Of a DNA stretch of 64,000 nt, positions 1,996-46,221 are shown in pieces. The position numbers and the translations under genes were made by a program. Numbering within the stretch: the first letter of the stretch is position 1; each line of letters opens with the position of its first letter. Location: positions 32,001 through 96,000 of the IMG/VR virus record IMGVR_UViG_3300047564_003843; one strand, 5' to 3'. Below the pieces are notes generated by a model that saw nothing but the letters and a program-made list of their open reading frames with translations, ran no database searches and was not told the DNA's origin. Source of the DNA: a virus.

Positions 1996-3039
1996 TTAGA
2001 TTTTCGCTGGCTTGACCTCTTCCCCATAAGCCCTTGTCAGCACATCGGCAACGACAGGTCTGTCTATTTCGGGGGCAGAGGCAAGAAGGTTCGAGATAGC
2101 GAAAGTATTGCCAAAAGTTTTCGCAACATCTCGGAAAGCAATAAGTTCTCGCATTTGTGGAGACCAAGAAACTTCATTTGATACTTGCTTCTTAGCAAGA
2201 TTTTGTGAAGCAGTAACCATCGCAGTTGGAACTCCAAGCTTTTTTGCGAGCGCCCAATCAGTAGTCATTTCAACTTGAATAGTGAAACGAGATAACAACG
2301 CTTCAGAAAGTCTAACTCCCGGAGCATTTGGATTTGTCGCAGCGACTACGAAAAAGTTTTCGTGAGCCTTGATAGTGCCACGCTCAGGATTTGCGGTGAC
2401 AACTAACTCGCGTCGTCCGTCCATCAAACCATAAGCAAGTGACAAAACCTTTGGGTCAATCAAACCAATTTCGTCAATGAAATAAACTTTGCCATTGACG
2501 GCGGCATCTATCAAACCACCATCAACCCAATCGAAACCACCACTTGGAGTTTGGACATAGCCACCAACTAAGTCAGCGACTTCTGTGTCACCTGTTCCCA
2601 TAAGTGTGACAACATCTTCACCAAACGCTGCTTCGACCATCGCAGTTTTTCCGCAACCCGGAGCGCCATAAATAAGTGCGAACATTGGAGAACCACCTTC
2701 ACCTGCGAAAGACTTCATTGTCATTTCTCTCGCTTTGCGAAGTGCCATAACATCTGAGTGTTCGCCCCACTTGCGACCAAAATACAAATCGCCATTTGGT
2801 CGAGCATAAGACTCAGCGCCTTCCATACTCTCGACACTAATAACTTGCTTTGACTTGCGTGGCGCTCTGTCAGAACCACTTGCGCGAGCAACATAACGCC
2901 CCGCAGGGTTCACTACTGCTGAAAGAGTTTTTGTTGAACTCTCAGATACTGCCTGTGCAACAACTTCTTCAGCGAATTGCCATAGTGTGCTACTCCCACC
3001 TAGTGAAGAGTATTTTTCTCTAAGATTTACATTTTCCAT
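1996..3039 (-). CDS. MoxR/CbbQ/NirQ-family (CobS-like) AAA+ ATPase
   Basis: Walker A GAPGCGKT, Walker B YFIDE, AATNP, LSEALLSRF; paired with vWA gene. Confidence 0.9.
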   Translation of the reverse strand: MENVNLREKYSSLGGSSTLWQFAEEVVAQAVSESSTKTLSAVVNPAGRYVARASGSDRAPRKSKQVISVESMEGAESYARPNGDLYFGRKWGEHSDVMALRKAREMTMKSFAGEGGSPMFALIYGAPGCGKTAMVEAAFGEDVVTLMGTGDTEVADLVGGYVQTPSGGFDWVDGGLIDAAVNGKVYFIDEIGLIDPKVLSLAYGLMDGRRELVVTANPERGTIKAHENFFVVAATNPNAPGVRLSEALLSRFTIQVEMTTDWALAKKLGVPTAMVTASQNLAKKQVSNEVSWSPQMRELIAFRDVAKTFGNTFAISNLLASAPEIDRPVVADVLTRAYGEEVKPAKI

Positions 3040-3059
3040 TTCCCTATGTCCTTTTCTCT

Positions 3060-3515
3060 CTACGCTATGAGTTCTTCAGGGAACTCGCTTGCTTCACGCA
3101 CTAAACCAATGCGATAAAGCAACTTGTTGGGTGTCTTACCTGTTCGGATTTCTTCTAAATCCTTTTTTGATACTTCCACAAGGAAAGCATCTTTTACAAT
3201 CTGCCAACCACCATTGTTTATCGCATCAAACAAATCCATAGCGAAAAACAATCTTTGAGTAGCAAACGCTTCTTTCTTTTCATCATCAAGCATTACTCCA
3301 CCTAGTTCAGTTATTGCGTGATTAGGTATTGGAGAGTTACGCCATTGTTTCTTTGGGGAAGCAGGTGTTACCACTCTGCGAAACAAATTGGCAGGAACAT
3401 CTTTGCCATCTGTTGTGTAACCATCAGGGGTGATGATTATTTGCATTGTTGCTCCGGGCTTACGGAACTCTGCATAAACTCCTACGCCCTGAACTTCTTT
3501 CGTGTTATCTAGCAT
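3060..3515 (-). CDS. hypothetical protein
   Basis: 151 aa ORF with leader AACGACGAAAGGACACCCA-ATG. Confidence 0.8.
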   Translation of the reverse strand: MLDNTKEVQGVGVYAEFRKPGATMQIIITPDGYTTDGKDVPANLFRRVVTPASPKKQWRNSPIPNHAITELGGVMLDDEKKEAFATQRLFFAMDLFDAINNGGWQIVKDAFLVEVSKKDLEEIRTGKTPNKLLYRIGLVREASEFPEELIA

Positions 3516-3556
3516 TGGGTGTCCTTTCGTCGTTGTTGGTGCTAGTGAAAACTAAT

Positions 3557-4048
3557 CTACCATCTCTCTGCTAAATGTGCAAACTCTTCAGCAAAAAGAT
3601 TTTCAGGTGTCGTGGTCTTTCCGAAAACTGAGGTGTAGAGGGCTAGACCCTCAGACCACTCTTCCCACCCCCCATCTGAGGAAACTTCAACTTGCTTCCC
3701 AAAAACATCTTTGATGAGTATTAGGGTTGCACAAACTAAAGTGTCGTAAGGGTGCATTTGGGTTTTGCAAAAGTTGAAAGAAGTTTTTGCATCTTTATCC
3801 CAATCAGGTGCAGGTGGCACGATTTGAGAGAAATGAAAAGTTTCGCACGCTTGTGGTTCTAAACCATTGAAAGCGATGCGCTCGCCACTTGCTTCCCAAG
3901 CGCCAGCCTTTTCTCCAAAAGCATCTGCAACTACAATGCCATTGAGGTCAGCTTTTTTTACTAACTCGATAAAACCTTTACGAACCTTTTCATAAAGTTC
4001 AGGCTCGTTACTATCGAGACTTCTTTTTAGATAATGGGTGTATCCCAT
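3557..4048 (-). CDS. conserved hypothetical phage protein (MGYTHY...FCKT..PYD type)
   Basis: 163 aa ORF with conserved leader and upstream promoter. Confidence 0.8.
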   Translation of the reverse strand: MGYTHYLKRSLDSNEPELYEKVRKGFIELVKKADLNGIVVADAFGEKAGAWEASGERIAFNGLEPQACETFHFSQIVPPAPDWDKDAKTSFNFCKTQMHPYDTLVCATLILIKDVFGKQVEVSSDGGWEEWSEGLALYTSVFGKTTTPENLFAEEFAHLAERW

Positions 4049-4078
4049 TTGGGTGTCCTTTCGTCGTTTGACAGGAAA

Positions 4079-4107
4079 AGATTATTTCATCTTCCTGCCA
4101 TTGTCAA
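4079..4107 (-). promoter_or_regulatory. sigma70-type promoter
   Basis: Minus strand TTGACA-17nt-TAATCT just upstream of the AACGACGAAAGGA leader. Confidence 0.75.
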
Positions 4108-4169
4108 GTAGAACACCAAAACTTTTTGATTTATTTCCTGACCCTGTGGGGATAAAAATGGCGAGCGCC

Positions 4170-4239
4170 AAAAAAAAGGTGAGCAGTTTTGTGACTTGCT
4201 CAGGTCTACGTGGGATAACGACGAAGAAACCCACGTAAG
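4170..4239 (-). ncRNA. candidate small antisense RNA (seed hairpin plus intrinsic terminator)
   Basis: -10-like TAGGGT at 4246-4251; stem TACGTGGG/CCCACGTA with loop TTTCTTCGTCGTTAT; second stem TGAGCA..TGCTCA then CC and T8. Confidence 0.6.
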
Positions 4240-4266
4240 ATTTTTACCCTATCAAGGGCCTAACTG

Positions 4267-4602
4267 TCAAGCTGGGTCCCGCGGCATGAAGTCATCGAGG
4301 TCAATACCGTATTGCTCGAACTTGTCATACAACACCGACATCTCCTCAGGCTTCTCGTAGGACTCCGTTATTAACCGTGCGACATTTGCACGCTGGCTAT
4401 CCGATGCTGACTCGAGGATTTCCCAATCTACTTCTCTCCAAAATGTAGTTTCCAATACGAGCAGACCGCTAGCGTCTCCGTAGTTCCCGTCAAGCGCGAA
4501 GTAACCTAGCGAGCGCTCTACAGGCTGCGGGTCTACTATTTTTACCTCTATAGGCGAGCCGTCTTCTACAAGCTCCGCGTCTAGAATCTCGTTCTCTTCC
4601 AT
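4267..4602 (-). CDS. acidic hypothetical protein
   Basis: 111 aa ORF, upstream GGAAGGG SD-like sequence. Confidence 0.75.
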   Translation of the reverse strand: MEENEILDAELVEDGSPIEVKIVDPQPVERSLGYFALDGNYGDASGLLVLETTFWREVDWEILESASDSQRANVARLITESYEKPEEMSVLYDKFEQYGIDLDDFMPRDPA

Positions 4603-4655
4603 CCCGTTTTTTACCCTTCCGTTTCAATAAACTAATACTACCCTGCCGTTTGGTA

Positions 4656-4681
4656 TGGGTGGGGCTTTTTTACCCCACCCA
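4656..4681 (-). terminator. stem-loop after the 4695 gene
   Basis: TGGGTGGGG-CTTTTTTA-CCCCACCCA inverted repeat. Confidence 0.5.
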
Positions 4682-4694
4682 CGCCGTGCCGTTC

Positions 4695-5420
4695 TTAGAC
4701 AATCATCTCGCTGATGTCCTCAAACTTCTGAATTACTTCTTCCGTCTTTTTGGCTTCTTGGGCGAGCCGTTCTTCTCGGTCAGGGCAGTCCTCATACCAC
4801 TCCTCAGGTTCATCCGAATAGTGGGCACAGGAACATCCGTCTGCGTTATCCCTTGCCACATAATCAGCGTGGCTTTCAGGAATGTCCCACTCTTCAACTA
4901 CAACTAACTCGCCGTTCTCGCTGGCATACTTCACGCCCCAGCCTTGCTCCTCTTCGCAATCAAACTCAAAGGTAAGTTCTGGATGTTGCTCAACCATTGC
5001 TCGGTAAGCACCTTCGGCAGGAGACCAAGCCGTAGAGAACTGATAACGAACCTCGCCTCTGGTTGAAATGTTATCTTCGTAGTAGAGGTCGCTACAATCC
5101 CACTTAGTTCCCCAGTTGCGGATGTTCCAGTCATACCAGCCATCTGACTTGAACTGCATAGAGACAGCCATCTTCTCTTCAACACTTAGTTCGTCATAAC
5201 CTTCTGGCTTGTAATCACTTGCCCCAAAGTAAAGTTGCTTGTTTTCTGGTTCTATGAAGTTCCAAAATGAAAGTTCTTTTTCTGAAACTTCTTCTTTTGT
5301 TTCATTTGTTTTCCAGTCCATCCAATAAGTTGTGTGAGGCTTGGTCGCCTTTTCAACAAACTTCTTGAGGTCTGCTTCTTCTCCTGTGATAACCACAGTA
5401 TTGAATACCCAGTTTGGCAT
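4695..5420 (-). CDS. DUF1281/Api92-like ferredoxin-fold protein
   Basis: MPNW start, WYDWNIRNWGTKWD and FSTAWSP motifs. Confidence 0.75.
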   Translation of the reverse strand: MPNWVFNTVVITGEEADLKKFVEKATKPHTTYWMDWKTNETKEEVSEKELSFWNFIEPENKQLYFGASDYKPEGYDELSVEEKMAVSMQFKSDGWYDWNIRNWGTKWDCSDLYYEDNISTRGEVRYQFSTAWSPAEGAYRAMVEQHPELTFEFDCEEEQGWGVKYASENGELVVVEEWDIPESHADYVARDNADGCSCAHYSDEPEEWYEDCPDREERLAQEAKKTEEVIQKFEDISEMIV

Positions 5421-5466
5421 TTTTATCCTTTCGTCGTTTTGGATAGTTCCATTTGGAACAGGTTTA

Positions 5467-5712
5467 TTATTTCACATCTCCACACTTTTCGCAAGTGCTC
5501 ATACAACAATCGCAATAGTTTTCGTGAGAGTTGTGGGAACAGCAGTCAGTATTGACAGCAACAAAATCCCACTTGGCGTTGATTTCATAATCCTCGAAGT
5601 CATCTGAAATCCAGTCATCAAGTTTGTTGATGGCGTCGTCTTCACTCTCTGCCTCGCCCACCTCAACCGCATACTCTTTGGTGAGGGTCGCATAGATTTT
5701 ATAGGTCGCCAT
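5467..5712 (-). CDS. hypothetical protein with Cys-rich C-terminus
   Basis: 81 aa ORF translationally coupled to the upstream gene. Confidence 0.65.
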   Translation of the reverse strand: MATYKIYATLTKEYAVEVGEAESEDDAINKLDDWISDDFEDYEINAKWDFVAVNTDCCSHNSHENYCDCCMSTCEKCGDVK

Positions 5713-6041
5713 TAGTCTTCATCCATCCAATCGAATCCCTGTGGAATGATGTTGATGAATCCTTCATTTGGGTCTGAAGGATTTGTGTTCACTGCTTGAA
5801 CGAATCGCAGTCCACAAGAGTTATCGAACCACTCCATTACTTTCTTTGACATTTCTTCAGGTGTCATTTCATCTGAAGTAATAAGTGGGTCGTATCCATA
5901 CTGGCGCATTAGAGCAACCTGCTCGTCGTCCATAAGAACATAGATTTTGTGGCAGGTGTCCCAAGCGATTGCTTTTGCGCTCGCTGTGTATTCATCAAGT
6001 TTTTCTGCTTCATAAACTTTATAGTTCGACATCAAAGACAC
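5712..6041 (-). CDS. hypothetical protein
   Basis: 109 aa ORF (WDTCHKIY, CGLRF); start may be at a later Met. Confidence 0.75.
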   Translation of the reverse strand: MSLMSNYKVYEAEKLDEYTASAKAIAWDTCHKIYVLMDDEQVALMRQYGYDPLITSDEMTPEEMSKKVMEWFDNSCGLRFVQAVNTNPSDPNEGFINIIPQGFDWMDED

Positions 6042-6216
6042 CTACGCCTTCTTTGTAATCTTCAATGATGTCTGTGAGCAAACCATCAAGAAAGTTTTCA
6101 GCACGACCTTCTAGTTCGTCGGCAACTTTTTCCCATTGCTCATCTGTGATGAAAGCAGAAATCATTCCCTCGAAATCATCTTTCGAGATGGTGCTTATGT
6201 TCACTACCTTTGCCAT
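6019..6216 (-). CDS. small acidic hypothetical protein
   Basis: 65 aa ORF with AACGACGAAAGGA leader; promoter TTGCTT-17-TAATGT at 6251-6279. Confidence 0.75.
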   Translation of the reverse strand: MAKVVNISTISKDDFEGMISAFITDEQWEKVADELEGRAENFLDGLLTDIIEDYKEGVGVFDVEL

Positions 6217-6367
6217 TTGTATCCTTTCGTCGTTTTACTTGGCATAACAAACATTACATCATCTACCTGATAAAAGCAAATCTCGCCACACCTGACTAGA
6301 CATCTTGGTAATCAAAAAGTTATTTGAAAGTTTGGACTGGCCTGGGGCCCTGGACCTGGACGAAAAG

Positions 6368-17916: not shown

Positions 17917-18591
17917 ATGGCAAAAGCACAATTTCCTATTGATGGAGTTCAGGGAAAGAGCTGGAAAATAACATCTCCCTTTGGTTGGAGAATTCATCCG
18001 ATTGAAAAGCGTAAAAAGCACCACAATGGAATAGACATTTGGTCTTCTCAAGAACCATGCTATATAGAATCAGCCTCTGACGGCACTGTGCTCTATGCAG
18101 GTCCTTCCGAGAAGAAGAAAGCAAATGGTGAACCAGATGGTTATGGTTATTACGTAAGAGTGTTGTCTGAGGTTGATGGCGTGTGGATGACTCACACATA
18201 CGCTCATATGGTTAAAGACTCGCTAAAAGTTAAAAAGGGTCAAAAGATTGAAGCTGGCACTGTTATTGGTAAAATGGGCACCACTGGTGCTTCCACGGGA
18301 AAGCATCTCCACTGGGAAATACATGAAGGGAAGAAACACCTATGGTCAGCAGATGGCTCAGGGTTTTTGGATCCAATCGCGTTTTGGAAAACTGTAATTG
18401 CGAAACAGAAGGCACTTGCAGATGCACCGTTAGCAACACCAGAGACTGCACCTGTAGCGCCAAGTCCGACGCACGGGAAAGCTCCCGTCACGAAGCCATC
18501 AGCCTCTGCTCCTGCGAAAGTAAAGCAGTCTTCCACTCGTGCTCCTGCGGGAACTGCTAAACCCAAAAGCAAGGGTAGGTTGACACCCTAA
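17917..18591 (+). CDS. M23 family peptidase (endolysin-like)
   Basis: HNGID, YAHM, GTTGASTGKHLHWE; Pro/Ala/Lys-rich tail. Confidence 0.9.
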   Translation: MAKAQFPIDGVQGKSWKITSPFGWRIHPIEKRKKHHNGIDIWSSQEPCYIESASDGTVLYAGPSEKKKANGEPDGYGYYVRVLSEVDGVWMTHTYAHMVKDSLKVKKGQKIEAGTVIGKMGTTGASTGKHLHWEIHEGKKHLWSADGSGFLDPIAFWKTVIAKQKALADAPLATPETAPVAPSPTHGKAPVTKPSASAPAKVKQSSTRAPAGTAKPKSKGRLTP

Positions 18592-18608
18592 GGTCTAACA
18601 CATAGACT
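18580..18608 (+). promoter_or_regulatory. sigma70-type promoter
   Basis: TTGACA-17nt-TAGACT followed by leader ATAACGACAAGAAAG. Confidence 0.7.
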
Positions 18609-18649
18609 GCAGGTAGAAGCAACAATAACGACAAGAAAGACGAAATGAC

Positions 18650-18832
18650 ATGGCACTAGCCCTACACTGCGACGCACCCAGTTGCGAAGCTTGGATTGAA
18701 AATAACTACACAAATAAGCAGAAGTACATCATCCTCAGCCATAACGGCGAAGATAAACATTTCTGCTCTTGGAATTGTGTAATTACATTTGTAAATGAAG
18801 TGGATGTTCTCGATGGTTTTGAGTCTAAGTAG
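18650..18832 (+). CDS. small zinc-binding protein
   Basis: CDAPSC...HFCSWNC. Confidence 0.7.
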   Translation: MALALHCDAPSCEAWIENNYTNKQKYIILSHNGEDKHFCSWNCVITFVNEVDVLDGFESK

Positions 18833-18846
18833 GATAGGCTCTCATC

Positions 18847-19551
18847 ATGGGAAAAAAGATAATCAAGTTTGGAAGAAGTCACGACTACCCTGAACTTCCT
18901 GTACCCGTTAGAAATGTAGTTCCAGATTGGTATAAAAAATCTCCTAGATTTATAGATGGCAAAGAAGCTTCTATTATTTATACCGAACGAGGTGCTCGTT
19001 CTAATATTGGTATGAAGATGTGCGTTCCATTTTTTGACGCGATGATTTGTGGATATACAGCAACTCTTTGGCAAGATGTCCAAGTAACAAGACGACCAGA
19101 TGGTTTAAAACTAGATTGGCTTGTAGACCCTACCCCAATCAATGACAGAAGTAGTCATGGTATGGAACTTCTTCCTATTCCTGCAGGACACTATCCTCAG
19201 CAATACGCTTGGGTAACACCTTTCTCAATTCAAACTCCTCCAGGCTATAGTGTTCTTATAACTCATCCGTTTAATCGTTATGACCTCCCGTTTACAACTT
19301 TGAACGGTATTCACGATTCTGACTCAATAATGCCTCACGGGCACTTACCTTTTTATATGAAAGATAATTTTGAAGGAGTAATTCCAGCAGGAACTCCTAT
19401 TTATCAAATCTTCCCATTTAAACGCGATGCTTGGGAATCAGAGTTTGACGAGACCCTTGGTAAAAAAGCAGAGAAGAGAATGTGGGACGGTATGACCAAA
19501 ATGTTTGGACATTACCGAAATAACATATGGAATAAGAAAGAGTACAACTGA
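18847..19551 (+). CDS. conserved phage protein, DUF6065-like family
   Basis: PDWYK, CVPFFDAM..GY, TPPGYS, GTPIYQIFPFKR. Confidence 0.7.
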   Translation: MGKKIIKFGRSHDYPELPVPVRNVVPDWYKKSPRFIDGKEASIIYTERGARSNIGMKMCVPFFDAMICGYTATLWQDVQVTRRPDGLKLDWLVDPTPINDRSSHGMELLPIPAGHYPQQYAWVTPFSIQTPPGYSVLITHPFNRYDLPFTTLNGIHDSDSIMPHGHLPFYMKDNFEGVIPAGTPIYQIFPFKRDAWESEFDETLGKKAEKRMWDGMTKMFGHYRNNIWNKKEYN

Positions 19552-21119
19552 TGGAGCTTAGAGACATAAAGAATGTGACCATCATTGGTGGTGGTACAGC
19601 AGGGTGGCTCGTTGCTCTTTATGCAAAGACAGTTCTTCCAACAAAAAGAATAACCTTAATCGAGTCAGACAAAATCGGTATTCTTGGTGCTGGTGAGGGA
19701 GCAACTCCTCAACTAATTAGCTTTTTAGACGTACTACAAATACCTGTTTCTAAATTAATTCAAGAAGCAGATGTAACACTTAAGCAGGGTATTAAGTTTA
19801 CAAATTGGCACAAAGGTGGAGATTCTGATTGGTTCTATCACCCATTTGTTGGTTTTGGTAATGTTGCTGCCACAGAGGTTTCTTTAGAAAGATATGTCTC
19901 TGGTACACCAGCTCTTTTTACACAGGTAGCAAAACTACAAGAACCTCAAGAAGAGTGGTGTTTTATGACCCGCTTATGTGAGCAGAACAAGGTTGCCTTC
20001 AAACCACATAGAGAAGAATTTTATCCAGCATCAGATCCAATTTTTCAATACGAAAAGATGGGAGCATTTTCTCTACATTTTGATGCTAGAAAACTTGCTG
20101 CGTTTTTATCAGAAACTGGTCAAGAACGCGGTATTCAAAGAATTGAAGGTTTAGTAGAAAGCTATAAAACAGATGATGAAGGTTATGTCAATGAACTTCT
20201 TTTAGATAATGGAAAGTCAGTAGATACTGATTTTGTTTTTGACTGCACTGGTTTTAAGTCTTTCTTTGCTAAAGAGTTTGAAACTAGTTGGGTGTCTGCT
20301 AAAGACCATTTAACTGTCAATGCTGCTATGCCTTTCTTCCTTGATATAGAAAGTCCTATCCCTCCATACACAGAAGCAGTAGCAATGAAGTATGGGTGGA
20401 TGTGGAAGATTCCTCTTCAATCTCGTTATGGTTGCGGTTATGTTTTTAATAGCAACATGATTGATGATGCTCAAGCAAGAGAAGAGATTATTGATTATCT
20501 TGGCTATGAACCTGAATGGCCTAGGGAAAAATCATTTAGTTGGGAACCAGGTTATTTATCAGAACCTTGGAAAAAGAATGTATTTACGATTGGTCTTTCT
20601 GCAGGTTTTGTTGAACCGCTAGAAGCTACTTCTATATGGTCAACTGTTATTGATTGGTCTAGTGCATTACTTGGCAATGTAGAACTTATGTATACAAAAG
20701 ACCAAAGTATTATTGATGATTTCAATAACTTCTGGCGTAAGAATCAAGAAGAAGTTATCGGCTTTATTTATGCTCATTACATGAGTGGAAGAACCGATAC
20801 AGAGTTTTGGGAGCACTACACCTACGAAAATGCACCTGCTTCATCAAAACGTTATTTAGATATAAATAATAAAAGATCCTTTATCCTTAATGATTTTATA
20901 GACCACAATTTCTTTGAAATTGATTCATGGTCTTATATTCTTCTCGGGCTTAAAAATAAAAAGTTTATAGAACACCACAAGCTATTCGAGTTCTATAATT
21001 TTACAAGAACTTTTATGGAACAAAGATATACAAGCTTTAAAAAACTTATTCAATATGTAGCAGACAATGAAGCAATCACCCACGACGAGTTTTTGGAGAA
21101 GATGAATGAAAAACAATAA
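19551..21119 (+). CDS. flavin-dependent tryptophan halogenase-family protein
   Basis: GGGTAGW, GAGEG, TLKQGI (catalytic Lys position), DCTGF, GWMWKIP (WxWxIP), GFVEPLEAT. Confidence 0.9.
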   Translation: MELRDIKNVTIIGGGTAGWLVALYAKTVLPTKRITLIESDKIGILGAGEGATPQLISFLDVLQIPVSKLIQEADVTLKQGIKFTNWHKGGDSDWFYHPFVGFGNVAATEVSLERYVSGTPALFTQVAKLQEPQEEWCFMTRLCEQNKVAFKPHREEFYPASDPIFQYEKMGAFSLHFDARKLAAFLSETGQERGIQRIEGLVESYKTDDEGYVNELLLDNGKSVDTDFVFDCTGFKSFFAKEFETSWVSAKDHLTVNAAMPFFLDIESPIPPYTEAVAMKYGWMWKIPLQSRYGCGYVFNSNMIDDAQAREEIIDYLGYEPEWPREKSFSWEPGYLSEPWKKNVFTIGLSAGFVEPLEATSIWSTVIDWSSALLGNVELMYTKDQSIIDDFNNFWRKNQEEVIGFIYAHYMSGRTDTEFWEHYTYENAPASSKRYLDINNKRSFILNDFIDHNFFEIDSWSYILLGLKNKKFIEHHKLFEFYNFTRTFMEQRYTSFKKLIQYVADNEAITHDEFLEKMNEKQ

Positions 21120-42012: not shown

Positions 42013-43434
42013 ATGGGAAAGAGCTTTATGGAACAGCTCGCCCTTCTACCTGAAGAAGAGCAAGCAGCAGTTCTTTCTCGTATAGACCCTGAAATACTTC
42101 AATGGGATTGGCAATCTTGGGGAAGACCAGAGCAGTTACCTCCTGAAGGCGATGATTGGAATATTTGGCTTGTACTTGCAGGTCGTGGTTTTGGTAAAAC
42201 AAGACTTGCATCTGAATGGGTAAGAGACCAAGCTAAATATACAAATGAAGGTCAAAGACGTTTTGCTTTGGTGGCTCGTACTGCTGCTGACGTTCGAGAT
42301 GTTATTGTTGAAGGTGAGTCTGGGATTATCAATGTCTCCCCACCATCTGAGCGTCCGCATTATGAGCCATCAAAACGTCGTTTAACTTGGCCTAATGGAA
42401 ATACAGCAACACTTTTCACCGCAGATGAACCTGACTCACTTCGTGGTCCTCAATTTACACACGCATGGGGCGATGAGATTGCAGCATGGAGACAAACTCC
42501 AGATGCTGCTGGTATGACTGCATTCGATAACCTTCGAGTTGGTACTCGTCTTGGTGCAAAACCAAAAATTGTTTGTACTACAACTCCTAAAAGAGTTCCA
42601 CTTCTTTACAAGTTGATTGAAGAATCAAATAATCCTAAAAGTCTTTCAAAAGTTATTGTAACTAGAGGTTCGACTATGGATAATGCTGGAAATTTATCTG
42701 GCACATATCTAGACACAATTATGGGTGTATATGAAGGAACTTCTTTAGCTCGTCAAGAACTTTACGGAGAAATGCTTACTGACCTTGAAGGAACTTTATG
42801 GACAATGGAGATGATAGAAAAATCTAGACAAGGAGTTCTCCCTCCTCAAGCTCCGCTCCGTTGTATTGGTGTAGACCCTTCTGTTGCAGAAAATCCTCGA
42901 GATGAGTGCGGAATTATTGTATGTGCATCTACAGCAGATAGAGATTTGTATAAACGTCATGCTTGGGTTTTAGAAGATGCATCTGTTCTTGGTTCACCAG
43001 AAGTGTGGGCAAATAAAGTTGTTGAGATGGCAAGACGTTGGGGAGCACCAGTAATTGCTGAAGTTAACCAAGGTGGAGCTTTAGTTAGAAATGCAATTAA
43101 TGCAATTGACCCAAATGTTAAGGTCTTGGAAGTGCATTCAAAGCATGGTAAAGCGCTTCGCGCTGAACCTGTTGTTCTTGCTTACGAGCAAGAGCGTGTT
43201 CATCACATTGGATATCTTCCAGACCTTGAGTCTCAGATGACAACTTGGGTGCCAGGAGAGACCAAAAAATCTCCAGACCGAGTTGATGCCTTAGTTCACG
43301 CAATGACTGCTCTCCTTATTAAGCCTCCACAAGGATTTGTTGGCGGTAACTTGGTAGCCAAATCCTTTTCCTCACGGAGATTGCCTAATTTTAGAACAGG
43401 TGGCGGAGGTCGAGTTTTTAGTCCTAGAAACTAA
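42013..43434 (+). CDS. terL: terminase large subunit
   Basis: AGRGFGKT, LRGPQF, WGDE, TTTP, RQEL.G, GVDP, SPDRVDA. Confidence 0.92.
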   Translation: MGKSFMEQLALLPEEEQAAVLSRIDPEILQWDWQSWGRPEQLPPEGDDWNIWLVLAGRGFGKTRLASEWVRDQAKYTNEGQRRFALVARTAADVRDVIVEGESGIINVSPPSERPHYEPSKRRLTWPNGNTATLFTADEPDSLRGPQFTHAWGDEIAAWRQTPDAAGMTAFDNLRVGTRLGAKPKIVCTTTPKRVPLLYKLIEESNNPKSLSKVIVTRGSTMDNAGNLSGTYLDTIMGVYEGTSLARQELYGEMLTDLEGTLWTMEMIEKSRQGVLPPQAPLRCIGVDPSVAENPRDECGIIVCASTADRDLYKRHAWVLEDASVLGSPEVWANKVVEMARRWGAPVIAEVNQGGALVRNAINAIDPNVKVLEVHSKHGKALRAEPVVLAYEQERVHHIGYLPDLESQMTTWVPGETKKSPDRVDALVHAMTALLIKPPQGFVGGNLVAKSFSSRRLPNFRTGGGGRVFSPRN

Positions 43435-46037
43435 AAGTTTCTATTAAAGGCGTTAAGAGTATTCCAATCAATTTCTGCTGTTTGTACAGCTCTTGGGATT
43501 AGACTTTTTCCTTTAACTATTGCTCGTGAACCAGTTCCAGAAGTCTCAATACTTCTTTCAGCTAGTTTTCTTTGGAATCCAATCTGAGTAAGTGGGCGTT
43601 CACCGCGCTCATCACTCCATTGACGATATACACCATATAAAGTTTTAATTGGTATCTGAGCGCCAGAATTTTCAAGAGTCTCTTCAGATAAAAAGATTCC
43701 AATACGGTCTTCATTTTTGCGATACATCTCAGCTGCTTCCGCAACTTGAGTGCACCAACCCAATGCATCACGGGATGACGAACCAAGAAGTTTAATAGCA
43801 CCATCTACAGCCCAAGAGAGAACGGCTGGAAGTGCACCTTCAGGGTCAAAGATGTATGCCTTTAAATCGGGATCAGGATTTTCAGGCACACGTGTCATCG
43901 GCATCGGACGGATACGACGCCACATTGCATCGTCCGTGATGATTGGGCGGTGATTTGTCGTAACCCAGAGTTTTGCTCTAGATTCGAACGTGAAAGGCTG
44001 TTCTCCCGGAGAACGAGCCGATATTACAGACGAACCAGTTAAACGCTTAACCGCATTTTCTTTGATTCGTTCATTGTCAGGAAGCTCATCAACCCACACC
44101 ATACGCTTACCACGCAATTGAGCCCAATGGTAAGCGTCTGTATTTCCATTACTCATTTCATTTGCGGCAAGGATGTGAGAATCAAGAGGCCATGCATATT
44201 GTTCTGTACCAAGACATTTAACAATTGCTTCAACAAGAGTGTTTTTACCAGAACCAGCAGGTCCATAAGCTAAAAACATAATGTCATATTTGTTAGAACC
44301 AGTAATTGAGTAACCAGCAGCTTTTTGTATCCAGTCTTGATATTCCTTATCACCACCAGTTGCAAAATCTAAAAATTGTTGCCACCGCACATTTGTATGT
44401 CCTCGTGTATAAGTTACTGGAGCTCTTCTGGTGATATTTAAATCTGGACGACCTTTTAATAGTTCACCCGTTCTTAAATCAATAACACCATTTAATACAC
44501 CTAAAAGATTTTCATCTGCATCCCATTTGCTTACTGGTACTTCAATTCTTGGGTCAGACTTTGCACTCTCTATTGCACCTTTCATACGAGCATTTGAACG
44601 CGATTGATGTGCCCATTGAATAACAGATGCTTGTTGAGAGTCGGGGTATTGAATTACCTCAGCGGAAACAATTGGTGGAATACGCTTAGCTAACTCTTGA
44701 ACTTCCAAGTCTTCTCGGTCTGGTTTCCAGTAGCCTTCTTTCCAAACAAACCAACCCAAGCCGCTCGTATAGCGAATCCCAGTGCCAAATACGTCAACAA
44801 GGCGACGACCATTACCTGTATCAGAAAGCGAACGCTTTCCTTCATTTCCTCCATCTTCAAGTCTGAGTGCATCTGGATCCTTAGGTACATTGATGTTAGT
44901 TAGAGATGTTGCTTGTTCAATTGAGTCACCGTCTTCAATTCCAGCTAAAACAGTGCTAGATATAGGACCAGTTCCCATAGGAAACATTGTTGGTTGTTTA
45001 GGCTCAATTGGTGTTACTACTCCAGTAAGAGGTTTTAGTTCTTTCTGTTCTCCAGAAATTCTTAAAGCTTGCTGCTTTTGCCACTCTGCTGTTTCTGGGC
45101 TTAAGTAAGCAAGTTTTGGATTAGCAGCAACAAAATCGATTGCTCTGTGTACGTGATGAAGTAGTCCGTTAGTTCCTTCTATGTGAAGAGGTGGACGAAT
45201 CTTCTCGGCATTGAATCTAATCATGTCAGACTCAATCATTCGCCTTGAACTTGCATCTGTTCCAAATTTATTTGCTAAAGCACAAACAAGTTTATAAACA
45301 TCTACAGCTCTAGAACCTTCATCAATACCTTGCTCAAGCATCGCTGAGACATCAACTTTTTCATATTCAATGTCGTCCCAGTTACCACTCTCAAGAGTGA
45401 AATTTGTTCTTCTAGTTTGCTTGCGAAGAGCTTGTAGTAGTTCTTCTGGAGCATCGGCCATTTCAATTTCCCAAGGTGCCTTGCCCTCAGCCCACTCATA
45501 GTTAAGACCAGAACCGTGTCTACTTGGAGCAATCAAAACATAACCGTTGTGCTTTATGTCAATGCCTTTTAAATCTAATTTATTTAAGTTTCCAATTAGT
45601 CCTTCAGATGGACTGCATTTGTAGTAGATGTGTCGACCACGGACATGACGACCTCTATCGTCAGTGTATGCACCAGTTAATGCTTCAACAGTTGGTGGAA
45701 GAGCTCCTTCAACTAATTCTTCAAATTTAATAAATGAATCAGGACCACCAGAACGAGGATCAATATCAATTACTAAAAAACCACTCTTTGAACAGTGAAC
45801 TCCAATGTTGTAGTTTGGATTATCAGTCCACCATTTTTCTACTGTCTGAGCGTTACTTGTAGAGTTTAGATTCCACTCATTTATTGCTGGGTGTTTTCCA
45901 ACCTCTTTTGGCTCCCCGTGACCCTTGTTGCAAGTACAACGACCGTCAACAATTCCATGACATGGAAGGATATTCCAGCCAATTTGAGAGTAATAAGAAG
46001 AACCTTTTACAAGACGCTCGGAGAAACCGTCTGTCAT
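43431..46037 (-). CDS. bifunctional primase-polymerase fused to a D5/P4-family SF3 helicase
   Basis: GKHP, NIG, VIDID, GRHIYY, GYVLIAPSRH; GPAGSGKNT, WVDE, TTNHRP, DDAMWRR. Confidence 0.92.
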   Translation of the reverse strand: MTDGFSERLVKGSSYYSQIGWNILPCHGIVDGRCTCNKGHGEPKEVGKHPAINEWNLNSTSNAQTVEKWWTDNPNYNIGVHCSKSGFLVIDIDPRSGGPDSFIKFEELVEGALPPTVEALTGAYTDDRGRHVRGRHIYYKCSPSEGLIGNLNKLDLKGIDIKHNGYVLIAPSRHGSGLNYEWAEGKAPWEIEMADAPEELLQALRKQTRRTNFTLESGNWDDIEYEKVDVSAMLEQGIDEGSRAVDVYKLVCALANKFGTDASSRRMIESDMIRFNAEKIRPPLHIEGTNGLLHHVHRAIDFVAANPKLAYLSPETAEWQKQQALRISGEQKELKPLTGVVTPIEPKQPTMFPMGTGPISSTVLAGIEDGDSIEQATSLTNINVPKDPDALRLEDGGNEGKRSLSDTGNGRRLVDVFGTGIRYTSGLGWFVWKEGYWKPDREDLEVQELAKRIPPIVSAEVIQYPDSQQASVIQWAHQSRSNARMKGAIESAKSDPRIEVPVSKWDADENLLGVLNGVIDLRTGELLKGRPDLNITRRAPVTYTRGHTNVRWQQFLDFATGGDKEYQDWIQKAAGYSITGSNKYDIMFLAYGPAGSGKNTLVEAIVKCLGTEQYAWPLDSHILAANEMSNGNTDAYHWAQLRGKRMVWVDELPDNERIKENAVKRLTGSSVISARSPGEQPFTFESRAKLWVTTNHRPIITDDAMWRRIRPMPMTRVPENPDPDLKAYIFDPEGALPAVLSWAVDGAIKLLGSSSRDALGWCTQVAEAAEMYRKNEDRIGIFLSEETLENSGAQIPIKTLYGVYRQWSDERGERPLTQIGFQRKLAERSIETSGTGSRAIVKGKSLIPRAVQTAEIDWNTLNAFNRNF

Positions 46038-46221
46038 AAAACCTCCGTCGTCATAAATCCCAAGGTATCTTAAACCTAAAACCTAAGTCAAGACACTAAT
46101 TACATTTTTTTTCCGTGTAGCAAATTTACACCTTTTGGAAGACTTAGGCGATACTAACTCTCCGACATTTAATATAAACTATATTCATAGTCTTTTAAAA
46201 ACCATAAAGTTAGGAACCAAA

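Follow-up and report, generated by a model that had tools for sequence, protein, structure and literature searches.

A large actinophage probably makes a small RNA whose hairpin loop is antisense to the leaders that head many of its own early genes. As far as sequence comparison can tell, the strongest argument that this pairing is functional is that two RNAs with unlike scaffolds each display the antisense of the leader used in their own lineage. The explanation as a whole, in which the message of the primase-helicase gene is included among the targets of the RNA, is put forward tentatively, as somewhat short of an even chance.

The phage and the leader of its primase-helicase gene

The window, by which we mean the whole 64,000-nucleotide stretch that was analyzed, comprises bases 32001-96000 of a 160,704-bp single virus record (43.5% G+C), and its features are collected in Table 1. 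The nearest cultured relatives of its primase belong to Microbacterium phages (49-50% identity) and to "Actinomycetia phage DSL-LC01" (64%), and IMG/VR holds 35 loci related to the gene at 49-84% identity. Since these relatives are actinophages, the host is probably an actinobacterium. The phage itself is a large, uncultured, and probably virulent actinophage, whose primase and RNA regions showed no DNA-level similarity to deposited phages, relatives being found only at the protein level.

On the minus strand, positions 46091-46035 consist of TTGACT (46091-46086), 18 nt, TACCTT (46067-46062), gggattt, ATGACGACGGAGG (46054-46042), tttt, and the ATG of the primase (46037-46035), so that a 13-nt site stops 4 nt short of the start codon. 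The original prediction had assigned the gene a TTGACT-18-TACCTT promoter. That sequence is present, and relatives retain TTGACT-17/18-TAnnTT despite diverged promoter spacers, although the -10 box matches the consensus at only 3 of 6 positions and stays below the threshold of a consensus promoter scan. Some 110 nt upstream of this conserved promoter there is another promoter-like site, TTTAAA-17-TATATT; transcription from it, if any, would give the primase message a long leader, and the message would then not be leaderless. The core of the 13-nt site, GACGACGGAGG, is retained in relatives with primases 80-84% identical and with diverged promoter spacers; L004 has lost the AU at the 5' end of the site. 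A hairpin sequestering the Shine-Dalgarno (SD) sequence of the primase message was considered and given no weight: it is predicted in three lineages, but its partners differ and it does no better than shuffled sequences (z, +0.6 to -1.3).

A candidate small RNA with a conserved loop in the early region

The partner of the primase leader is the loop of a candidate small RNA unit, the TTGACA of which overlaps the TGA stop of the gene at 4267-4602. The RNA is predicted to fold into a 9-bp hairpin and a second structure, followed by U8 (minimum free energy, -25.2 kcal/mol; z, -3.7). The loop sequence TTTCTTCGTCGTTAT has its sole exact copy here, at 4229-4215(-), 41.8 kb from the primase leader. 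Relatives of the locus were found via homologues of the downstream gene, a fourth lineage being added by a pattern scan. The 13-nt loop core UUUCUUCGUCGUU was identical in all four lineages, and the stem bearing it had undergone compensatory changes, from CGUGGG/CCCACG to CGCGGG/CCCGCG (U-A to C-G) and from A-U to G-C, with G5/C5 in lineage 4. Three lineages retain TTGACAG...TAGGGTAAAAAT, including where the reading frame upstream of it is shifted. Lineage 4, which has lost the 3' AU of the loop, has a stop codon within GGGTAAAAAT and no evident -35 box, and its RNA may therefore be a 3'-untranslated-region element.

Searches with the Rfam covariance models gave no gathering-score match in the window and nothing relevant at an E value of ≤10 in positions 4100-4300, and the model of the c4 antisense RNA family (RF01695) was not matched by the loop RNA. 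Pfam and PHROGs searches of the genes beside the RNA found no RNA-binding protein. When the RNA locus was sought at the DNA level in the five contigs with the closest primases, there was no match, because these fragments end before the early region. No contig carries both the RNA and the primase gene, the two being linked via contigs of a shared sample or shared identity, and among the contigs examined none has both a changed loop and a primase gene.

The candidate RNA ends in a widespread phage pseudoknot

The apparent terminator of the RNA is one copy of a pseudoknot that is widespread in phages, a point that the original prediction had overlooked. The 28-nt consensus, NNAC-C-UGAGCA-N-GUNN-NN-AAAC-UGCUCA, shows covariation in both stems. 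Of 111 distinct copies, 110 can form stem 1 (NNAC/GUNN), with GC, CG, AU, and UA as pair types, and when position 5 of stem 2 (S2) was forced to be non-G, its partner was complementary in 79 of 82 copies (AU, 64; CG, 10; UA, 5). Because the two stems interleave, the fold is an H-type pseudoknot. A search with CCTGAGCANGTNNNNAAACTGCTCA had hits in at least 120 IMG/VR contigs and, across many phyla, in 58 stretches of GTDB genomes; overall, the pseudoknot is present in at least 240 IMG/VR contigs (L049-L168 and L232-L350 among our loci) besides the 58 GTDB stretches (L169-L226). Among 200 copies, 82% lie within 80 nt after a co-oriented open reading frame (ORF), with a median gap of 12 nt; in 73% such an ORF begins no more than 100 nt downstream, and a T-run follows 28% of the copies. 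Across phages of many host phyla, this placement generally marks the pseudoknot as a co-oriented "punctuation" element between genes. Cultured phages with the motif are the Arthrobacter Amigo group, Roseobacter SIO1, Lentibacter, phiCT19406B, Lactobacillus phig1e, Staphylococcus StB12, S-H35, and crAss cr7_1, and the genome studied here has a single copy. The pseudoknot is absent from Rfam 15, and a literature search for its sequence returned nothing relevant. Five CRISPR spacers equal the pseudoknot sequence: a single array of "Ca. Tepidiaquacella proteinivora" (repeat GTCTCAATTCCACTATGGTTCAATTCAAAT) accounts for four, and the fifth comes from a Poribacteria genome; from this recurrence, hosts appear to target the conserved element repeatedly.

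The short first hairpin, the AAAC-containing spacer, and the pairing of loop with spacer recall the coremin motif (xrRNA-C) and xrRNA-WCC of plant and other RNA viruses (PMC10520033, PMC10321173), as do the intergenic or untranslated positions shared with coremin. The coremin motif has a 4-bp hairpin 1, a YGAD (or YGNNAD) loop, a spacer ...AAACUAC, and then hairpin 2 (PMC10520033). The phage element, in contrast, has an 8-nt loop (CUGAGCAN) in place of YGAD, an S2 of 6 bp and not 3, and a spacer NNAAAC followed by the loop-pairing UGCUCA, with no conserved or obligatory second hairpin, and its hosts are bacteria, without Xrn1. Having neither the YGAD loop nor the second hairpin, it was not assigned to coremin/xrRNA-C, and the likeness is one of resemblance only.

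Strength of the match between the primase leader and the loop

As originally claimed, the leader and the loop pair at all 13 positions (10 Watson-Crick and 3 G-U pairs), and the pairing covers the GGAGG of the SD sequence; the longest pure Watson-Crick run is 6 nt. For a regulator seed, at least 6 to 7 contiguous pairs in a single-stranded part are asked for, and here there are 13 pairs with a 15-nt loop on a 9-bp stem; the site also overlaps the SD sequence, as occlusion of initiation would demand.

Leaders, taken as -35 to +6 around 183 crudely called ORF starts, were ranked by their hybrid energy with the loop. The primase came first of the 183 (-17.1 kcal/mol; next, -14.1) and the 18650 gene fourth (-14.0 kcal/mol), in line with the expectation that both would be in the top tier, the ranks being approximate because the gene caller is crude and misses at least 5 motif-bearing genes. 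After correction for the opening of the target (predicted cost, about 7 to 9 kcal/mol, with about 7 for the primase site), the primase took rank 9 and the 18650 leader rank 1. The prediction had named as its refutation that many unrelated SD-led leaders score equally well. None of 1,522 SD-led leaders of unrelated phage contigs reached -17.1 kcal/mol and three reached -16, which extrapolates to about 0.1 expected per 183 leaders, but with composition-preserving shuffles of the loop the best leader had -15.0 ± 1.5 kcal/mol and 9% reached -17.1. Since about 180 leaders were tested and 9% of such pyrimidine-rich shuffled loops find an equally good one, the family-wise P value is about 0.1 and the primase match is not significant by itself: it is unusual for one leader (top 0.1%), yet only at about P = 0.1 genome-wide. 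The 160.7-kb genome has 17 other sites with at least 13 contiguous pairs to the loop (G-U allowed), and the primase is surpassed in energy by three non-self sites, each of them located in coding or antisense sequence. There is no primase-specific covariation, as the loop and the site are both invariant where both are known.

A mini-ORF that starts within the site

The original prediction overlooked a conserved ATG at the 5' end of the 13-nt site and the mini-ORF that it opens. Since this ATG lies 7 nt after the -10 box, the mini-ORF is probably leaderless. Exactly 7 nt separate TAnnTT from the ATG in the lineages of the window, L001, and L004, with a diverged 7-nt sequence. The mini-ORF reads MTTEVL*, MTTEVI*, and MKTTEVI* in the three, the sole indel being one codon (AAG), and in each its TGA overlaps the primase ATG. 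These are the features of a leaderless coupled upstream ORF (uORF), with its ATG at the predicted transcription start, its frame kept, and its stop overlapping the main start. Other uORFs overlap or abut the primase start in four more lineages (Table 1), which suggests that coupled translation of the primase is an old feature of this group of phages. Leaderless mRNAs and short leaderless ORFs are reported for actinophage hosts. The mini-ORF resembles the leaderless uORFs and termination-reinitiation of Actinobacteria in its ATG at the predicted transcription start, its 6 to 7 codons, and its ATGA overlap, and differs from them in that it contains the SD sequence of the main gene and that its start is predicted from sequence.

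It is a serious, though minority, possibility that AUGACGACGGAGG is kept solely as the start of this leaderless mini-ORF (MTTEV-) and as the SD sequence of the primase, with termination-reinitiation at ATGA, and that the complementarity is incidental, any U/C-rich loop pairing with a purine-rich ribosome-binding site. If a leaderless mini-ORF is coupled to the primase, no RNA pairing is needed to explain why the site begins with a conserved AUGA, and the 7-nt gap fixed despite divergence, the codon-sized indel, the constant ATG overlap, and the recurrence of primase-overlapping uORFs (L010, L014, and L034; the uORF of L017 ends 4 nt before the start) all fit such a role, as do relatives that are actinophages, with hosts known for leaderless mRNAs. 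So do the P value of 0.09 under the shuffled-loop null and the frequency of GACGAC, which as such is not enriched in leaders (1 versus 0.75 expected). This explanation nevertheless leaves unaccounted for the use of ACGACG, which is the core of the leader family of this phage, the invariance of both ACG wobble positions, the presence before primases of other lineages of the AACGA-type leader proper to each lineage, and the failure of every one of the 1,522 unrelated leaders to score as well. The mini-ORF reading does not exclude targeting by the RNA, the two being compatible: an RNA paired to nt +1 to +13 would leave neither the leaderless start nor the SD sequence accessible. On this evidence, the primase is plausible as a physiological target, if not a probable one.

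The leader class and its other members

The genome has 11 exact copies of ACGACGAAAGG, each 5 to 9 nt before a start codon and most of them preceded by a conserved promoter of the extended -10 type, which carries a GCAGGAAG box in its spacer, and the loop pairs with AACGACGAA of this canonical leader family. ACGAC is enriched in leaders (15 versus 3.5 expected), and TAACGAC is enriched more strongly (3 versus 0.18 expected), found at genome 21351, window 18650, and genome 117252. The leader CAAACGACGAAAGGA occurs at genome 22131, 22453, and 158560 (+) and at eight minus-strand sites (window 3533-6234 and upstream); it shares 12 nt with what we take to be the start of the tag-coding sequence of Escherichia coli tmRNA (GCAAACGACGAAAAC), probably by coincidence, because actinobacterial tags differ.

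The leader of the 60-amino-acid Cys-rich gene at 18650 had been described as the reverse complement of the loop with one gap, behind a TTGACA-17-TAGACT promoter. Both statements held, the promoter scoring 10 of 12 in the scan. CAATAACGACA(A/G)G... is conserved in three lineages (L227-L230), and every change in this leader among relatives is a purine transition opposite a loop U. A match inside the 18650 ORF (ATAACGGCGAAGA) had the best non-self energy (-18.1 kcal/mol) but was absent from L228-L230, and not being conserved in relatives it was set aside as probably due to chance. The operon headed by the 18650 gene also contains a gene for a tryptophan-halogenase-family flavoenzyme (Pfam E value, 3e-99), an unusual auxiliary gene for a phage. 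The third member of the ATAACGAC subclass is an SNF2-family helicase gene outside the window, at genome 117252 (-), with the leader CATAACGACAGAAGG and an extended -10 box, TGATAGTAT.

Primases elsewhere have leaders of the same kind. The primase or a uORF fused to it stands behind AACGAC or AACGAA in four other lineages (L010, L014, L015/L016, and L017), with AACGACAAATG in L010, AACGACGCATAGATG in L014, and AACGAAAGGA in L017, and AACGAAAGAAA directly precedes the primase in L015, L016, and L027. The earlier claim that the regulon extends beyond the local cluster and includes replication is supported in part. Its reach beyond the cluster has better support from the TAACGAC leaders, the conservation of the 18650 leader, and the AACGA leaders of primases than from the match of the primase, which alone has a P value of about 0.1. 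By these comparisons, the leader class does reach beyond the early cluster.

A different RNA carries the antisense of a variant leader

A contig of the sister lineage G006 has a shorter leader, AACGAAAGG(A/G)A (= AACGAAAGGAA), at 11 genes. At the corresponding place in its early region, beside a homologue of the window gene at 4695-5420, a TGATATAAT promoter is followed by a structured RNA of about 165 nt and then by a terminator. The central loop of this RNA holds UUCCUUUCGUU, the exact 11-nt antisense of the leader AACGAAAGGAA; nowhere else on the gene strand of the 85.6-kb contig does such a 9-mer occur. The RNA is conserved in at least 8 distinct contigs, and the consensus fold leaves most of the antisense stretch unpaired; with its three or four helices, it is structurally unrelated to the loop RNA of the window. 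It matched no Rfam family, and ARAGORN found no tmRNA at three of its loci (L362, L370, and L371). A primase homologue was absent from the 79% of the G006 genome covered. Covariation is found at the system level only, a leader variant going together with its antisense RNA in the G006 lineage.

These data also bear on the idea that the class of AACGAC(G) plus SD leaders is read by some other factor, such as a RegA- or RegB-like repressor or nuclease, a ribosomal feature, or a promoter start-site region, the hairpin being a by-product (a relic of an inverted leader), a decoy or titrator, or nothing more than a 3'-end or processing structure of the gene at 4267-4602. The spacing between the motif and the start codon is fixed, and the motif frequently falls within about 10 nt of the predicted transcription start; the hairpin always adjoins the same upstream gene and in lineage 4 directly follows its stop codon with no -35 box, and the attached pseudoknot is usually intergenic (82% of copies within 80 nt after a co-oriented ORF). 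A relic, however, would not keep an invariant loop through compensatory changes of the stem, another lineage has a second RNA, of different structure, that displays the antisense of the variant leader, and the neighboring genes offer no candidate RNA-binding protein. We consider a reader other than the RNA improbable.

Table 1. Positions of the features discussed (window coordinates unless a contig is named)
Feature	Position	Strand	Description
Candidate small RNA unit	4170..4270	-	TTGACA 4270-4265, TAAAAA 4246-4241, hairpin 4239-4206, pseudoknot 4206-4180, U8 4177-4170
15-nt loop UUUCUUCGUCGUUAU	4215..4229	-	Core UUUCUUCGUCGUU invariant in four lineages; contains YUNR-like UUCG
H-type pseudoknot copy	4180..4206	-	S1 GAC/GUC, S2 UGAGCA/UGCUCA, conserved linker AAAC
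Primase-helicase gene	43431..46037	-	868 amino acids; Pfam Prim-Pol, D5_N, DUF5906, Pox_D5
Mini-ORF ATGACGACGGAGGTTTTATGA	46034..46054	-	MTTEVL*; TGA overlaps primase ATG (ATGA)
13-nt site AUGACGACGGAGG	46042..46054	-	Complementary to loop; covers GGAGG SD sequence and mini-ORF ATG
Candidate primase promoter	46062..46091	-	TTGACT-18-TACCTT; TTGACT-17/18-TAnnTT kept in relatives
Second promoter-like site	46171-46199	-	TTTAAA-17-TATATT
Canonical leader AACGACGAAAGGA of gene 3060-3515	3528..3540	-	ACGACGAAAGG family
Other window copies of canonical leader start	4068, 5438, 6234	-	5' A of AACGACG core
Promoter of 18650 operon	18580..18608	+	TTGACA-17-TAGACT; 0.1 expected in shuffles; conserved in relatives
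Leader ATAACGACAAGAAAG of gene 18650-18832	18625..18639	+	Pairs with loop, one bulged loop C
Internal match ATAACGGCGAAGA in 18650 ORF	18741..18753	+	Rejected
Tryptophan-halogenase-family gene	19551-21119	+	522 amino acids
SNF2-family helicase gene	L360:154-1953		Genome 117252 (-)
uORF before primase	L010:1644-1700		15 codons; TAATG overlap
uORF before primase	L014:2950-3004		8 codons; ATGA overlap
uORF before primase	L017:2940-3004		10 codons; ends 4 nt before start
uORF before primase	L034:2950-3004		TAATG overlap
G006-type RNA	L362:4266-4390 = G006:C1:70265-70389	-	Also L366-L371, L383, L385
Pseudoknot-matching CRISPR spacers	L215:1776-1800, 3037-3061, 5923-5947; L222:6754-6778; L223:930-954		

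DISCUSSION

The mechanism that we propose would run as follows. The phage would make a small RNA of about 70 nt (approximately 4239-4170, minus strand) composed of a 5' hairpin with the 15-nt loop, the pseudoknot module, which may protect the ends of the RNA, and a U-run. Its loop would be antisense to the leader class, AACGAC(G) plus a purine-rich SD sequence, heading many early genes. The primase message would most likely be a diverged member of this class, the first 13 nt of which could pair with the loop, and the pairing would hide both the AUG of the 6-codon mini-ORF, which is probably leaderless, and the GGAGG that serves the primase, so that translation of the primase would be lowered when the loop RNA is abundant. 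The leaders of the 18650 operon and of the SNF2 helicase gene, both of the ATAACGAC type, are further likely targets, for which the 3' half of the loop would supply the pairing partner. The sequence comparisons show the complementarity and its rank, the conservation of the loop and the sites, and the agreement of leader variant and antisense RNA by lineage. A discrete RNA species, its binding in vivo, and the direction of its effect are what we infer here from nucleotide sequence.

Several known systems are related in principle. The c4 antisense RNA of phages P1 and P7 and the sar RNA of P22 present loop stretches that pair at ribosome-binding sites and block translation (PMC12197685). The loop RNA is like c4 (RF01695) and sar in being a small phage RNA with short loop stretches complementary to the surroundings of the ribosome-binding site of phage messages. 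Unlike them, it would serve a dozen or more dispersed leaders with one loop and not a single adjacent operon, it carries a pseudoknot module, and its phage is large, uncultured, and probably virulent; to c4 it has no sequence or structure match (cmscan). In P1, the target of c4 is the upstream ORF icd, to which the downstream ant is translationally coupled. CopA/CopT and RNA I/RNA II expose their seed in a large hairpin loop that contains a YUNR-like U-turn and sits on a G-C-closed stem, and the loop RNA shares with them the large-loop seed, a YUNR-like UUCG, and the closing of the stem by G-C pairs; those RNAs, however, are cis-antisense with full complementarity, whereas the loop RNA is proposed to act in trans through pairing of 9 to 13 nt. 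The function that we envisage is like that of T4 RegA, a translational repressor, and RegB, which cuts GGAG in early SD sites, both of which bring about a phage-wide posttranscriptional shutdown of many early genes via their initiation regions. RegA and RegB are proteins, in contrast to the RNA considered here, and no homologue of either was found in this phage.

Taken to its full extent, the anti-leader explanation would hold that related lineages of large freshwater actinophages each encode a RegA-like anti-leader RNA, finished here by the pseudoknot, that controls dispersed genes including the SNF2 helicase gene and, via the leaderless mini-ORF, the primase gene. In that extended form, which we regard as rather unlikely to be right in every part, the loops would follow the leader motif of their own lineage, UUUCUUCGUCGUU facing AACGACGAAAGG and UUCCUUUCGUU, on an unrelated scaffold, facing AACGAAAGGAA. 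To our knowledge, the small RNAs of phages known so far mostly act on one neighboring gene or on host messages. If the proposal is true, these phages would possess an RNA counterpart of the timing exerted by T4 RegA and RegB, acting through a shared leader motif and reaching replication genes tens of kilobases away. The two lineage-matched pairs of RNA and leader offer a clean design for compensatory-mutation tests, and the pseudoknot, which is found in hundreds of phage contigs from many host phyla, in cultured phages, and in CRISPR spacers and is not in Rfam, is directly testable in the laboratory.
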